Source: a virus. Taken from it: 64,000 bases of DNA. Both the position numbers and the translations under genes were made by a program. Positions 37,466 to 63,786 of this stretch are shown here, piece by piece. Under the pieces are notes generated by a model. It was not told the DNA's origin, did no database searches, and was given only the letters and a program-made list of their open reading frames with translations. Position 1 is the first letter of the stretch; each line of letters opens with the position of its first letter. Where the stretch lies: IMG/VR virus record IMGVR_UViG_3300042375_000684; one strand, given 5' to 3'.

Positions 37466-37811
37466 AGGGCGAATAGAAAAAGGCTGGGGAAGTGAACTAA
37501 TTTGGGCAACAAATGATAAGTATTGTGGAAAGTTACTACACTTTAAGAATGATGCAAAATTTTCAATGCACTTTCATGCTGAAAAAGATGAAACGTGGTA
37601 TATCTTAACAGGTAAATTCATTGTTAGTTGGATAGATACAAAAACAGCGGAAAAGAAATCACTAGAATTGAGACCTGGTTCTACATGGAGAAATGTACCT
37701 CTTGTACCTCACCAATTAGAGTGTCTTGAAGAAGGTACAATCATTGAGGTTTCAACACCAGATTCAGTTGAAGATAACTATAGAGTTAGCCCAGGAGACA
37801 GTCAAAAATGA
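37452..37811 (+). CDS. Cupin sugar isomerase/epimerase
   Basis: KGWGSELIW, FSMHFHAEKDETWY cupin motif 1, VPHQL motif 2. Confidence 0.75.
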   Translation: MTRLEGRIEKGWGSELIWATNDKYCGKLLHFKNDAKFSMHFHAEKDETWYILTGKFIVSWIDTKTAEKKSLELRPGSTWRNVPLVPHQLECLEEGTIIEVSTPDSVEDNYRVSPGDSQK

Positions 37812-38626
37812 AAGTATTAGTAACTGGTCACAAAGGCTTTATCGGCCAAAATATGTGTAAGGCTATTCTTGCTGAAGGTTGGGAGTTGGAAACTTTTGAT
37901 ATAGTCGATAATCCAACAGCAAGACCAAAAGATCTAAATTATGATGGTGTTAATTGTGTCATGCATTTAGGTGCAATCAGTTCTACAACAGAGACTGATG
38001 TTCATAAAATTATGGACTTGAATTTGTGTTGGTCTATAGAACTATTAGAAGAATGCAGAGAAAGAGGGATTGATATGCAATTTGCATCTTCTGCATCTGT
38101 ATATGGTCAAAATAGAAATGCTAGAATTTTATGTGAAGATGACATTTGCTATCCTGTAAATTATTATGCACTCAGTAAATACATGTTCGAGAAATATGCA
38201 AATAAAAGAACTTATGTTGCATCTACATTACAAATTTTCCGATATTTCAATGTTTATGGTCCGCATGAAGAACACAAAGGATCACAAGCAAGCCCATTTA
38301 CTCAATTTGCTAAACAGGCAAAAGAAAATGGTGTGATTAAAATATTTAAAGGTTCTCGTGAGTTTACACGTGATTTTGTGCATGTAGATACAGTAGTTGC
38401 TGCACACATACGAGCTTTAAGTAAAATAGATCTATTTGCTGGGGGAACCTATAATGTTGGTTCAGGCTATTCAAGAAGTTTTCTTGATGTTGCCAAAGAC
38501 ATTGCCCTCTTGTATAATGCAGAGATAAAAGAAATTCCATTTCCTGAAAATCTTAAAGAACATTATCAGTATCACACCCAAGCAGATATTAGTAAATTAA
38601 ATGATTTATTATTTTATGGATTATAA
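37808..38626 (+). CDS. hldD: ADP-L-glycero-D-manno-heptose 6-epimerase (extended SDR)
   Basis: VTGHKGFIG, HLGAISSTTETD, SSASVYG, YALSK, RYFNVYGPHEEHKGSQAS closely matching HldD/RfaD. Confidence 0.82.
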   Translation: MKVLVTGHKGFIGQNMCKAILAEGWELETFDIVDNPTARPKDLNYDGVNCVMHLGAISSTTETDVHKIMDLNLCWSIELLEECRERGIDMQFASSASVYGQNRNARILCEDDICYPVNYYALSKYMFEKYANKRTYVASTLQIFRYFNVYGPHEEHKGSQASPFTQFAKQAKENGVIKIFKGSREFTRDFVHVDTVVAAHIRALSKIDLFAGGTYNVGSGYSRSFLDVAKDIALLYNAEIKEIPFPENLKEHYQYHTQADISKLNDLLFYGL

Positions 38627-38630
38627 TCCA
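38617..38630. promoter_or_regulatory. 14-bp perfect palindrome TGGATTATAATCCA (operator candidate, copy 1)
   Basis: Perfect inverted symmetry; abuts the -10 box of the minus-strand promoter; near-identical copy at 62249-62262. Confidence 0.65.
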
Positions 38631-38658
38631 ATTATACCATACTTTCAGTCTTTGTCAA
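38631..38658 (-). promoter_or_regulatory. Antisense sigma70-type promoter TTGACA-N16-TATAAT with extended -10 (copy 1)
   Basis: Minus strand reads TTGACA aagactgaaagtatgg TATAAT; points into hldD. Confidence 0.75.
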
Positions 38659-38681
38659 TGGAATAAATAGACACCTTCTAT

Positions 38682-38689
38682 TATAAATA
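38682..38689 (+). promoter_or_regulatory. T4-type late promoter TATAAATA (fibre unit B)
   Basis: Exact consensus 24 nt upstream of ATG 38713. Confidence 0.8.
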
Positions 38690-38712
38690 GAAATAAAAGA
38701 AGGGTGTGTTCA

Positions 38713-39051
38713 ATGTCAACCAGAGCAAACTTATACGTAGATCAAGGTGTAGATTTTGTTACATCGCTAAATCTTTTCACAGATGTGGGTGATGAATTTG
38801 ATATCACAACGCAAGAATTTTCATGTGATGTTCGTAAAGTATATTCAAGTACTATTATATTTAGTGCTGACATTATGGTAGAACCAGGTAATGTTCCTGG
38901 TTTACTAGAAATGGAATTTTCAGGTATTGTTACTGCTAATACAGATCCAGGTAAATATCAATATGATTTAATAATGACGAGCTCGAGCGGAAAAAGAGAG
39001 AAAATCTTAGAAGGTTTACTATTTCTACTTCCTACAATTACTAGAGGTTAA
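38713..39051 (+). CDS. Small Ig-like virion structural protein
   Basis: RANLYVDQGVDF...PGKYQYDL..T.....EKILEG pattern common in T4-like phage structural regions; ATG at 38713 preferred to GTG 38704. Confidence 0.65.
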   Translation: MSTRANLYVDQGVDFVTSLNLFTDVGDEFDITTQEFSCDVRKVYSSTIIFSADIMVEPGNVPGLLEMEFSGIVTANTDPGKYQYDLIMTSSSGKREKILEGLLFLLPTITRG

Positions 39052-60718: not shown

Positions 60719-61456
60719 ATGTTACCAATTTCAGTAGGAATACTTTCGTGGAACTCACCTGAAGTTCTAGAAGAGACAATAAAAACTTATATAATGAATG
60801 GACTTTTTAATCTAGTTTCAGATATAACAATTCTATTTCAAGAAGTTACTAAAGAGGATAAAGCACTTGCTAAAAAATATGGCATTCCTTTCATTGGTTT
60901 AGATACAAATGTAGGCATTGGTAAAGCAATGCAAATACTAGCCGAACAAGCAACAGAAGAATATTTTCTATTTCTTGAAAATGATTGGCAATTAATTGAA
61001 ACTAAAGAAACTACAAAGAAAAGATTAATTGGATCCATAGATCTTTTAGAAGAAGATTATCAGTGCATAAGACTAAGATCTAGACGAACACCTGGATATC
61101 CTTTATTTTCAGAAGTTTATAGGGATAATGAATTAAATCATTACGATGAAAATACTGGTTTAATTTCTCCGCATCTCTTTGATTGTATTCATTGGATTGA
61201 AGAACCTGATCTAAAATTTGAGCAAATTAGAAAGCATAAATATCACTACATTACAACATCGCGTTGGTCTAATTGGACCAATAATCCGTGTTTATTCAAG
61301 ACAGAATTTATTCCAGATATTATTGATCCATTTATCCAAGATAATCTTCTTGAACCATCAATTTCAAGATGGTGGGCAGAACAGAATTTTAATGTTGCAT
61401 GGGGTGAAGGTTTATTTAAACATGTTGATTTTAAGAAATATGGAGATATATATTAA
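60719..61456 (+). CDS. GT-A (GT2-like) glycosyltransferase
   Basis: ISVGILSWN, NVGIGKA, FLFLENDW, WTNNPCL; ATG 60719. Confidence 0.68.
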   Translation: MLPISVGILSWNSPEVLEETIKTYIMNGLFNLVSDITILFQEVTKEDKALAKKYGIPFIGLDTNVGIGKAMQILAEQATEEYFLFLENDWQLIETKETTKKRLIGSIDLLEEDYQCIRLRSRRTPGYPLFSEVYRDNELNHYDENTGLISPHLFDCIHWIEEPDLKFEQIRKHKYHYITTSRWSNWTNNPCLFKTEFIPDIIDPFIQDNLLEPSISRWWAEQNFNVAWGEGLFKHVDFKKYGDIY

Positions 61457-62232
61457 TGCATAAAGTAATTCTTGTAACTGGTGGTTTCGATCCTCTACAT
61501 AGTGGACATATTGCATATTTTGAAGAAGCAAAGAAATTAGGTAATACATTGGTAGTCGGTGTCAATAGCGATGAATGGTTATCTCGTAAAAAAGGCCAAC
61601 CATTTATGGATGTGAATGAGAGAATGTCAATCATAAAACATCTATCCATGGTAGACGCTGCTATTATATTTGATGATTCTGATGGGACTGCAAAAGCAGC
61701 AATAAGATATTGTTTAAATGCATATCCAGAGTCCGAAATTATCTTTGCAAATGGTGGTGATAGAACAAAAGCAAATATACCTGAAATGGAACTTGTTTGT
61801 GATGATTCCGAAACAAAGAGACTAAAATATGTTTTTGGTATCGGTGGAACACATAAAATGAATTCCAGTAGTAAAATACTGACCGAATGGAAGACACCAA
61901 AAACAGAACGAAAGTGGGGTTATTATAGAGTATTACACTCTGATGGACCATCACTCAAAGTCAAAGAGTTAGTTGTGGAACCCGGGAAATCATTGAGTGT
62001 TCAGAAACACAATCTAAGAAGTGAACATTGGATAGTTTCTGAAGGTATTGCGACAGTAAATTATGGTGACCATCCCGCCGCTCTTTCAACTACAAAATTG
62101 GAAAAACACGATGAGATTCATATCTCAGTTGGCAAATGGCATCAACTTGTAAATGAGACGAACAATGAAGTCCGAATTGTTGAAATCCAATTCGGAGTTA
62201 ATTGTATCGAGGAAGATATTATTCGGATTTGA
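61456..62232 (+). CDS. Cytidylyltransferase-family nucleotidyltransferase fused to a ManC/PMI-type cupin
   Basis: TGGFDPLHSGH (HxGH), FANGGDR; ERKWGYYRVL, LSVQKHNLRSEHW, WHQL. Confidence 0.82.
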   Translation: MHKVILVTGGFDPLHSGHIAYFEEAKKLGNTLVVGVNSDEWLSRKKGQPFMDVNERMSIIKHLSMVDAAIIFDDSDGTAKAAIRYCLNAYPESEIIFANGGDRTKANIPEMELVCDDSETKRLKYVFGIGGTHKMNSSSKILTEWKTPKTERKWGYYRVLHSDGPSLKVKELVVEPGKSLSVQKHNLRSEHWIVSEGIATVNYGDHPAALSTTKLEKHDEIHISVGKWHQLVNETNNEVRIVEIQFGVNCIEEDIIRI

Positions 62233-62248
62233 TTCTGTTTTATTTTCA

Positions 62249-62262
62249 TGGATGATAATCCA
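62249..62262. promoter_or_regulatory. 14-bp near-palindrome TGGATGATAATCCA (operator candidate, copy 2)
   Basis: One mismatch from the palindrome at 38617-38630, same position relative to the -10 box. Confidence 0.62.
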
Positions 62263-62290
62263 ATTATACCATACATGTAGAACCTGTCAA
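62263..62290 (-). promoter_or_regulatory. Antisense sigma70-type promoter TTGACA-N16-TATAAT with extended -10 (copy 2)
   Basis: Minus strand reads TTGACA ggttctacatgtatgg TATAAT; points into the nucleotidyltransferase-cupin gene. Confidence 0.75.
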
Positions 62291-62311: not shown

Positions 62312-62319
62312 TATAAATA
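62312..62319 (+). promoter_or_regulatory. T4-type late promoter TATAAATA for the neck operon
   Basis: Exact consensus 31 nt upstream of gp13. Confidence 0.8.
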
Positions 62320-62349: not shown

Positions 62350-63102
62350 ATGGCTCAACCAAGAACTAGAAGAGATTTTAAAGAGTATTGCCTAAGAAAA
62401 TTAGGCCACCCGGTTATTCAGATAAATGTGTCAGATGAACAAATTGATGATCGTGTAGAAGAAGCATTATCGTTCTGGCAAGATTATCACTACAATGGTT
62501 CCGATCTTGTTTACCTTAGACACATGTTGACTCAAGGAGAAATAGATCAAGGTTATGTGGATTTAAATAACACTGAATATGCTAATTTACTTGGTGTTGT
62601 TCGCATTTTTGATCTATATTCATCTATTTCAACTGGTACTGGCATGTTTAACGTGCAATACCAATTTGTTCTAAATAACTTGCAGGATCTTACAGGTTAC
62701 TCTATTCAAAACTATTATATGACTATGCAGCATATCCGTTTTATCCAAGAATGGCTTGTTGGTTTACCTTTAATTAGATATAACAAGCATACTAATAAAC
62801 TTTACATTGATCAGAGTAAAGCAAAATTAACCCCTGGCTATTATGTTATTATTGAAGCGTATGCACCTATTGATGATGCAAATCCAGATATTTGGAGTGA
62901 TAGGTTTCTTCAAAATTATACAACTGCACTTATTAAAGAACAGTGGGGTTCAAATCTTACCAAGTTCGTGAATATGCAACTTGTTGGTGGCATCCAATTC
63001 AACGGCGAACAAATACTTGCTGATGGAAGAGATGAACGCAAGGCTATGGAAGAAGAAGCAAAAAGTTCTCTACAACCACTTACTTACAATTTCTCTGGAT
63101 AA
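62350..63102 (+). CDS. gp13: Neck protein gp13
   Basis: FKEYCLRKLGHPVIQINVSDEQIDDRVEEAL..WQDYHYNG, YTTALIKEQWGSNLTKF.NMQLVGGIQFNG. Confidence 0.93.
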   Translation: MAQPRTRRDFKEYCLRKLGHPVIQINVSDEQIDDRVEEALSFWQDYHYNGSDLVYLRHMLTQGEIDQGYVDLNNTEYANLLGVVRIFDLYSSISTGTGMFNVQYQFVLNNLQDLTGYSIQNYYMTMQHIRFIQEWLVGLPLIRYNKHTNKLYIDQSKAKLTPGYYVIIEAYAPIDDANPDIWSDRFLQNYTTALIKEQWGSNLTKFVNMQLVGGIQFNGEQILADGRDERKAMEEEAKSSLQPLTYNFSG

Positions 63103-63105
63103 TAA

Positions 63106-63786
63106 ATGGCAAACTATAGTCACATACCATATACTTACATGATAGGTTGGTCCAAACAAAAAAAATATTATTACGGTGTGCAATTCGGTAAAAATGCAAA
63201 CCCAAATAATTTATGGAAAACTTATTTTACATCTTCTAACAATGTAAAAAAGTTTATAGAAAATTATGGTGATCCAGATATAATAGAAATACGAAAAACT
63301 TTTTTGACCCCGTGCAAAGCTAGAGCATGGGAAACTAAAGTGATTCAACGAATGAATTTAGTTGAAAATCAAAATTGGTTAAATAAAACAGATAACACAT
63401 CAAAATTTTATTTTGAAGGTCCTCGAGGCCCCAGAAGTAAAGAGCACACTGAAAAACTTAGAAAATCTCATATTGGTAAAAAAATAACAGCCGAACACAA
63501 AGAAAAGCTTCATACTGGAAGAAGAAATTCAAAAAACACTCCAGAACACACTGCAGCTATACTTAAAGCAGTTAAAGGGAAGAAACATACCGAAAAATCC
63601 AGAAAAAATATGGCTGATGCTTATGCAAAAAGAGATATCGAAGAAGTTAAAAATAATGCTAGTAATGCTGGAAAGAAAAGTGCCGCGTTATACAAGAATG
63701 ATCCAGAAAGACAAGCTGCACATAGTGAAAGAATGAAAATGTGGTGGGCAGCGCGCGGACAACTTCTATCTATGGAAGGACAATAA
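63106..63786 (+). mobile_element. Free-standing homing endonuclease (GIY-YIG-like N-terminus + NUMOD3-like repeats)
   Basis: PYTYMIGW...YYYGVQFGKNANP..LWKTYFTSS...WE..VI...N...NWLN; basic C-terminal SKEHTEKLRKSHIGKKITAEHKEKL / KGKKHTEKSRKNM repeats; sits between gp13 and gp14. Confidence 0.75.

Follow-up and report, generated by a model that had tools for sequence, protein, structure and literature searches.

The window analysed here is the whole 64,000-nt stretch of IMG/VR record IMGVR_UViG_3300042375_000684, which comes from a T4-like phage from lake water. Its long ORFs lie on the plus strand throughout, and the late promoter motif TATAAATA occurs 15 times, always on the plus strand. At two borders between co-directional genes a compact promoter-like module is found on the opposite strand, aimed back at the upstream gene (gene A), which it enters from the 3' end, and standing back-to-back with the late promoter of the unit that follows (opened by gene B). 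The features of the two borders are as follows.

Copy 1:
37808-38626, plus strand: gene A, an HldD-like, NAD-dependent nucleotide-sugar epimerase whose 3' end faces the antisense promoter
38600-38616, minus strand: A-rich predicted initial transcribed tract, TAAAATAATAAATCATT on the minus strand
38617-38630, minus strand: palindrome/hairpin TGGATTATAATCCA, directly after the -10 and overlapping the epimerase stop codon
38631-38639, minus strand: extended -10 (TGG) and -10 hexamer TATAAT (TATAAT at 38636-38631)
38653-38658, minus strand: -35 hexamer TTGACA
38682-38689, plus strand: late promoter TATAAATA of the downstream tail-fibre unit, divergent, 23 nt beyond the antisense -35
38704-39051, plus strand: gene B, phrog_1084 / tail-fibre-assembly-like protein of 115 aa, which opens the fibre module

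Copy 2:
61456-62232, plus strand: gene A, a cytidylyltransferase-like domain plus cupin (phrog_7878; PF01467 + PF01050)
62233-62248, minus strand: A-rich predicted initial transcribed tract, intergenic, past the gene A stop codon
62249-62262, minus strand: palindrome/hairpin, TGGATTATCATCCA in minus-strand reading
62263-62271, minus strand: extended -10 (TGG) and -10 hexamer TATAAT (TATAAT at 62268-62263)
62285-62290, minus strand: -35 hexamer TTGACA
62312-62319, plus strand: late promoter TATAAATA of the neck (g13) unit, divergent, 21 nt beyond the antisense -35
62350-63102, plus strand: gene B, neck protein gp13 (head-tail adaptor Ad2)

The two copies were recognised from a repeat, 38616-38642 and 62248-62274, in which 26 of 27 nt are identical (no chance matches in 100 shuffles) and which is followed in both places by 10 unrelated bases and then by TGTCAA. 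Read on the minus strand, each copy is TTGACA-N16-TGgTATAAT followed by TGGATTAT[A/C]ATCCA, so that the repeat, the extended -10 promoter and the adjoining palindrome of the original prediction are all confirmed at both sites. When both strands of the window were scanned for sigma70 hexamers matching at 12/12 positions, these two copies were the only hits. The 16-nt spacer of both copies falls within the 17 +/- 1 bp expected between -35 and -10 in sigma70 promoters, and both have the extended -10 (TGG) as well as a purine at a suitable distance of 6–8 nt past the -10. Counting from the -10, the predicted start in each case is base 7, an A that follows a T, at ~38624 and ~62256. The first 10 bases of the spacer agree at only 3/10 positions between the copies, while the blocks around them are conserved; therefore selection must be holding the blocks, and a recent duplication is ruled out. 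A search for a credible minus-strand ORF downstream of copy 1 or copy 2 found none in the window. Together with the recurrence of the element elsewhere, described below, this strongly supports the assignment, proposed earlier from the conserved boxes, the diverged spacer and the lack of a gene downstream, of both copies as sigma70-type antisense promoters under selection.

Two other explanations of the box itself were considered and rejected. A sense mini-ORF, MD[D/Y]NPIIP, could start at an ATG within the box, but it has no SD and shows no synonymous variation, the sole variable base being non-synonymous. A DnaA box in the stretch TTATC...ATCCA reaches at most 7/9 matches here and 8/9 in one relative, and is absent from most stems of the family described below. 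The 120 nt preceding gene A contain no late promoter, and the temporal class of the upstream gene cannot be read in this way.

The module is not confined to this phage. We scanned IMG/VR and a metagenome collection with a query consisting of the -10 and the box, with the -35 left free, and obtained 13 and then 42 viral stretches, as well as 32 metagenome stretches. Although it was absent from the query, TTGACA sits exactly 16–17 nt upstream in every true member, across a spacer that is free to vary. In all of the ~33 non-redundant viral and metagenome contexts the flanking ORFs on both sides lie on the strand opposite to the promoter, and the element is found 10–70 nt past the stop codon of the gene into which it points. 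Five larger contigs (28–82 kb) carry one copy each. Within the lineage of the window one box recurs at at least five types of site, and its sequence is the same in 22 non-redundant contexts despite a variable spacer; an inner position alone changes, which fits a hairpin and the centre of an operator alike. Some copies contain an extra inverted repeat which takes in the -35. The exact element was found in none of 50,697 records of isolate phages. Hits obtained with a relaxed pattern (L020-L047) were discarded, as they represent an unrelated conserved coding stretch, TATAATTGGATCATnATCCAT, with no TTGACA; this stretch reads like the start of a putative portal-type gene.

The contexts also go well beyond sugar genes. 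The commonest site is between the uvsW-type helicase and the late sigma factor gene g55, and other copies follow thymidine kinase or lie among small early-type ORFs. The proposed link to glycosylation operons therefore survives in part: these other sites contradict it as a general rule, while an association with phrog_7878, the nucleotidyltransferase-cupin gene A of copy 2, extends to distant genomes. There phrog_7878 is kept while the gene behind the promoter varies, being g13, a 1718-aa structural protein or a 135-aa virion protein. The recurrence of this pairing in distant genomes suggests that the link between phrog_7878 and the antisense promoter is old.

For an assessment of conservation we used g13 and g55 loci, which were picked by protein alone and so independently of any promoter. 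At g13, a 12/12 antisense promoter is present ~60 nt upstream of the gene in all eight close relatives (identity of 84% or more), with the sequence past the -10 being either TGGATTATCATCCA or AGATTTATCT. At g55, ~45 of ~55 non-redundant loci (64–100% identity) keep a 12/12 antisense promoter aimed into the helicase gene. Past the -10 of these promoters there is always a short palindrome, the arms of which vary from phage to phage yet remain complementary (for example AGCC-TTAT-GGCT, CTGA-TTTA-TCAG, CAGAAT-TAAT-ATTCTG and CGGTT-TT-AACCG), and then an A-rich tract. The same arrangement is present upstream of g55 in the cultured cyanophages S-RIM8, P-SSM3, S-CREM2, S-SZBM1, S-PM2 and P-HM2, where the promoters have 9–12 of the 12 matches and where in several phages the two -35 hexamers are arranged as an inverted repeat. 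Three distant complete genomes also carry the elements at the kinds of border seen in the window, namely between phrog_7878 and g13 or another structural gene, between an upstream gene and phrog_1084, and between the helicase and g55.

On the side away from gene A the element is typically paired with a divergent promoter. From the sequences retrieved in this analysis we collected all non-redundant perfect promoters, 64 antisense and 23 sense. Twenty of the 64 antisense elements have a sense late promoter TATAAATA 21–25 nt beyond the -35, as in the window, while 35/64 have a sense sigma70-like partner, with the gap between the two -35 hexamers peaking at 33–34 nt. At such gaps polymerase bound at one promoter would cover the flank of the other, given the size of its footprint. 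These antisense elements are not stray copies of a generic early promoter, an outcome that would have counted against the original prediction. In an 80-kb relative (G001), where this was checked, the generic early promoter is a distinct, multi-copy sense motif, found more than 20 times as TTGACA-N17-TATACT/TATATT-GATTCTATAAGG-SD-ATG.

The feature which sets the antisense promoters apart most clearly is the palindrome at the predicted start. In 58 of the 64 antisense promoters we find a perfect stem of 4 bp or more, offset by 0–1, where shuffles gave a mean of 6.05 and a maximum of 12; no such stem occurs in the 23 sense promoters, 22 of which have no stem whatever. Altogether we counted 29 distinct stems, whose arms measure 3–7 and whose loops or centres span 2–7 nt, and single complete genomes carry several: three in G010 (AGT..ACT, AGGTA..TACCT and AGCAT..ATGCT) and three in G006 (AGCA..TGCT, CAGAAT..ATTCTG and TAGAT..ATCTA). 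In nine hairpins of equal geometry all four pairs are changed on both sides, but this set was preselected for pairing, and the fair, unbiased test is the survey of the 64 antisense and 23 sense promoters with its shuffles. The loop is T/A-rich and contains a T-A step at the 6th–8th base past the -10 which is conserved in the loops of relatives. Since this is where sigma70 promoters start, the predicted start falls within the loop, and a canonical start there would leave the 5' arm of the hairpin outside the antisense RNA.

The complementarity of the palindrome, kept without conservation of its sequence, suits a structural hairpin with the start at its centre better than the operator of one repressor. 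G.U wobbles, looked for as a guide to the strand that folds as RNA, gave no guidance, as nearly all pairs in the stems are Watson-Crick and G.T is absent. Folded as RNA, the hairpins of the two window copies have energies of -4.5 and -5.1 kcal/mol. An intrinsic terminator acting on the sense strand was rejected, since the hairpin is this weak, it is followed by AUUAUACC instead of a U-run, and a terminator scan was silent. The hairpin may tune initiation or promoter escape, or it may act on the sense mRNA as a cap at its 3' end.

Rfam 15 covariance models gave no relevant match around either copy at E<=1. A search for a conserved terminator was negative, with terminator-like sites after only 21 of 58 elements, at scattered distances, and a similar proportion, 6/23, after the sense controls. 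The predicted antisense RNAs fold no better than shuffles. A small RNA with its own terminator, of the lambda OOP type, was discarded on these two grounds, the missing conserved terminator and folding at shuffle level. The 15–30 nt past the hairpin are ~75–90% A+T, although this is a short tract in a genome that is already 64% A+T.

What is the role of these modules then? We rank first, with a probability of roughly 0.45, the possibility that they are early border elements driven by the host polymerase. Host sigma70 RNA polymerase would read a very strong non-coding promoter at the border of two co-directional units, and from a start within the hairpin loop this promoter would fire back at the upstream gene, entering it at its 3' end. 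Early in infection, when the sigma70 holoenzyme is dominant, antisense RNA would be produced and polymerases would run head-on into the upstream genes, while a polymerase bound at the element would also cover the DNA beside the neighbouring promoter. The antisense RNA, the head-on polymerases and the occupancy would jointly silence or insulate the border, until the polymerase carrying the late sigma factor (gp55) takes over. In view of the effects that initial sequences have, the combination of an A-rich initial tract with a full consensus suggests that the element would be a very strong and productive promoter. This explanation preserves the core of the antisense timing switch that had been suggested for glycosylation genes, in a generalised form and with the repressor removed.

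Several points speak against such a border element. An insulator would be expected 5' of the unit that it protects, while the RNA here would enter the upstream unit. Gene A is not always a late gene, as the copies at thymidine kinase and at small early-type ORFs demonstrate. Elongating polymerases usually dislodge promoter-bound ones, which makes the efficiency of the element as a roadblock doubtful. The hairpin is left unexplained, since a canonical start keeps its 5' arm out of the RNA. Finally, a promoter and A+T-rich tract placed antisense to a late gene would also fit a replication origin of the T4 type.

Such an origin deserves to be taken seriously as a rival, although we consider it rather less likely than the border element. 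By analogy with T4 oriF and oriG, the untranslated transcript would form an R-loop in the A+T-rich tract and would prime the leading strand, with the antisense orientation serving to keep ribosomes off the primer RNA. The T4 record offers clear parallels: the oriG primer RNA runs opposite the late tail-fibre gene 34 and that of oriF towards the 3' end of uvsW, which correspond in position to copy 1 at the start of the tail-fibre module and to the commonest site of the family at the uvsW 3' end. The numbers are also compatible, with a few elements per ~200 kb genome compared to at least five active origins in T4, and T4 origins require only a promoter and a downstream A+T-rich tract, a candidate for which is the short stretch of ~75–90% A+T past the hairpin. 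However, T4 oriF has no hairpin after its -10, and the primer RNA predicted here would be A-rich. A-rich RNA makes weak RNA:DNA hybrids. In addition, the extremes of cumulative GC skew in three complete relatives track switches of gene strand and not the elements, and the fixed back-to-back spacing with a sense promoter is no known feature of origins. In a more far-reaching form, which we regard as doubtful, the modules, as primer-RNA promoters, would be the long-sought replication origins of non-enteric T4-like phages including cyanophages, the hairpin would be a new origin component, and the fixed place of the modules beside late or g55 promoters would physically couple the onset of replication to the late switch.

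A quite different role would be that of a cassette related to the PeSLs (promoter-early stem-loops), in which a near-perfect sigma70 promoter and a stem-loop form a cassette in T4-type phages (Arbiol 2010; Comeau 2014, PMC4122927). The hairpin would then form the 3' end or terminator of the upstream mRNA, its A/U-rich tail (AUUAUA) would double as the opposing -10, and the module would serve chiefly as punctuation and as a recombination module shifting genes between phages. PeSLs have indeed been implicated in modular shuffling in T4-type phages (PMC4122927), and the position of the hairpin 10–70 nt past the gene A stop codon, the exchange of the gene behind the promoter with phrog_7878 retained, the use of one box at at least five site types and the extra inverted repeat that includes the -35 in some copies would all be in keeping with such a cassette. 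We nevertheless find it improbable, as the orientation is reversed relative to PeSLs with no gene after the promoter, a weak hairpin without a U-run is not a canonical terminator, and a terminator role leaves unexplained why a perfect -35 is placed at the exact distance.

The original prediction took the palindrome to be a 14-mer operator at which a dimeric phage or host repressor would close the antisense promoter late in infection, and this part of it is not borne out. Its appeal is evident: the palindrome lies over the start site, in the classic position of an operator, the box is identical at the 22 contexts of the window lineage while the spacer varies, and near-pure Watson-Crick stems without G.T suit a site in double-stranded DNA. 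One operator would nevertheless be expected to have one sequence and a fixed spacing in each genome, while G006 and G010 carry three palindromes each, and the variable half-site spacing of the 29 stems (arms of 3–7, centres of 2–7 nt) is unexpected for one repressor family, so we judge a dedicated operator to be more improbable still. A lineage-specific protein might also bind the palindrome. Chance matches, or functionless early-promoter relics decaying after deletion of a minus-strand gene, are hardly credible, since, even though one hairpin-less antisense 12/12 match inside a 1008-aa ORF of G010 does look like chance, the boxes stay perfect while the spacers randomise, the elements are kept at orthologous sites from cyanophages to freshwater phages, hairpins are present in 58/64 cases with ~6 expected, and a reversed-pattern control gave 0–2 matches per genome against 4–15 observed.

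None of these five readings accounts well for the hairpin. If it acts on polymerase at initiation, it would represent a new way of shaping a bacterial promoter. To our knowledge, MotA and AsiA, the middle-transcription factors of T4, are missing from the T4-like phages that infect cyanobacteria and other aquatic bacteria. In such phages the element provides a sharply defined signal, searchable by sequence, at the border of uvsW and g55 and at the entrances of structural modules, and it makes both the separation of early from late expression and the sites of replication start directly testable in available cultures, for example of S-PM2 and P-HM2. It can also be used in annotation, to flag the borders of units in phage metagenome contigs. 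Antisense promoters with a start-site hairpin at the borders of T4-like phages apparently form a class without an earlier description, as far as our literature search extends, which did not include the key cyanophage transcriptome.

Related systems are known nonetheless. Classical hybridisation work described the 'anti-late' RNA of T4, which consists of early transcripts complementary to late mRNA. We know of no defined conserved promoter-hairpin module described either for this RNA or for CfrI, an antisense RNA of S-PM2. CfrI is located at psbA and at a homing endonuclease gene (PMC2984593), while our element lies at the borders of units. The likeness would be in the early or co-expressed transcription opposite late or auxiliary genes of T4-like phages. 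In lambda and P22, OOP RNA (from p_o) and sar are short antisense RNAs with intrinsic terminators of their own, and a LexA box is found at p_o. As in these cases, the antisense promoter described here is situated just past the 3' end of its target (OOP) or in a border region and would fire against the main transcript, and, as at p_o, a palindromic site overlaps the promoter. Unlike OOP and sar, it has no conserved terminator and faces a variety of target genes, and its palindrome covaries where a fixed operator would keep its sequence.

With PeSLs the element shares a conserved intergenic promoter with a short stem-loop, repeated within the genome in variable gene neighbourhoods. PeSLs, however, are sense promoters, present in many copies in hyperplastic regions, with the stem-loop upstream of the -35 and with SD and ATG at the end, while our element is antisense and low-copy, has its hairpin after the -10 and has no ORF or SD downstream; what this clade has as a true PeSL-like promoter is a different motif, TATACT-GATTCTATAAGG. 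The T4 origins oriG (ori34) and oriF (oriuvsY) resemble it in having a host-polymerase promoter at a few places per genome, and the tract past the hairpin is a candidate counterpart of their downstream A+T-rich tract. Like the oriG transcript, which runs opposite a late tail-fibre gene, the predicted RNA would be non-coding and antisense, and at the uvsW border the promoter is aimed at the uvsW 3' end as at oriF. The element differs from oriF in its start-site hairpin, and from the T4 origins, which use MotA-dependent middle promoters, in its full sigma70 consensus including the -35.

Several members of the family, which carry the antisense promoter together with its start-site palindrome (the box), have a second inverted repeat in which the antisense -35 hexamer serves as the 3' arm, as in ATGTTGTCAA...TTGACAACAT, and in which the loop is A-rich. 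This second repeat occurs in L007, L064, L067, L019, L053 and L061, some 20-30 nt upstream of that hexamer, and is not present in copy 1 or copy 2 of the window. Many members (e.g. L002, L007, L064 and L067) also share a semi-conserved CTGAWTC(TA), found 12-25 nt downstream of ATCCAT, which reads TAGAATCAG or TGATTCAG on the sense strand, where it frequently provides the upstream gene with its stop codon.

Our relaxed search pattern also matched a conserved coding stretch in a subset of loci L020-L047 (e.g. L022:2990-3009). This stretch lies close to the beginning of a conserved phage gene, has the coding-strand sequence ATGGATAATGATCCAATTATA (M-D-N-D-P-I-I-S...) and lacks TTGACA; we rejected it as an antisense element and regard it as a chance look-alike of the box.

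Two further features of the window were noted:

62171-62196, both strands, 9-bp inverted repeat TCCGAATTG...CAATTCGGA within the terminal part of the cupin gene; counted from the predicted start of copy 2, it lies ~60-85 nt downstream
63106-63786, plus strand, ORF following the neck gene g13, in the position of neck gene g14

The inverted repeat was scored as terminator-like in a terminator scan, and comparison by eye showed no obvious conservation in the ortholog L006. The ORF matches PHROG 314, labelled 'homing endonuclease', a label that is probably misleading since only an internal part of the long profile is covered.

In the cultured cyanophages P-SSM3 (L255), S-PM2 (L321) and P-HM2 (L322), the -35 hexamers of the sense promoter of g55, the late sigma factor gene, and of the antisense promoter together form an inverted repeat in the intergenic region upstream of g55, either TGTCAA-N5-8-TTGACA or TTGACA-AGTT-TGTCAA, and so make up a compact pair of divergent promoters.

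The 80-kb relative contig G001 (L080-L083) contains more than 20 sense-oriented early-type promoters of the form TTGACA-N17-TATACT/TATATT-GATTCTATAAGG-SD-ATG, for example:

30126, minus strand, early-type promoter
46913, minus strand, early-type promoter
49888, minus strand, early-type promoter
58032, minus strand, early-type promoter

Their spacer often ends in ...TAGAATCAGT, which places the -10 inside the palindrome TAGAATCAGTATATACTGATTCTA, and GANTC sites fall within this palindrome. The sense-oriented motif of G001 is a generic early promoter, similar to PeSL, the promoter-early stem-loop cassette of T4-type phages. The CTGAWTC(TA) of family members is similar to the region with which this generic promoter begins.
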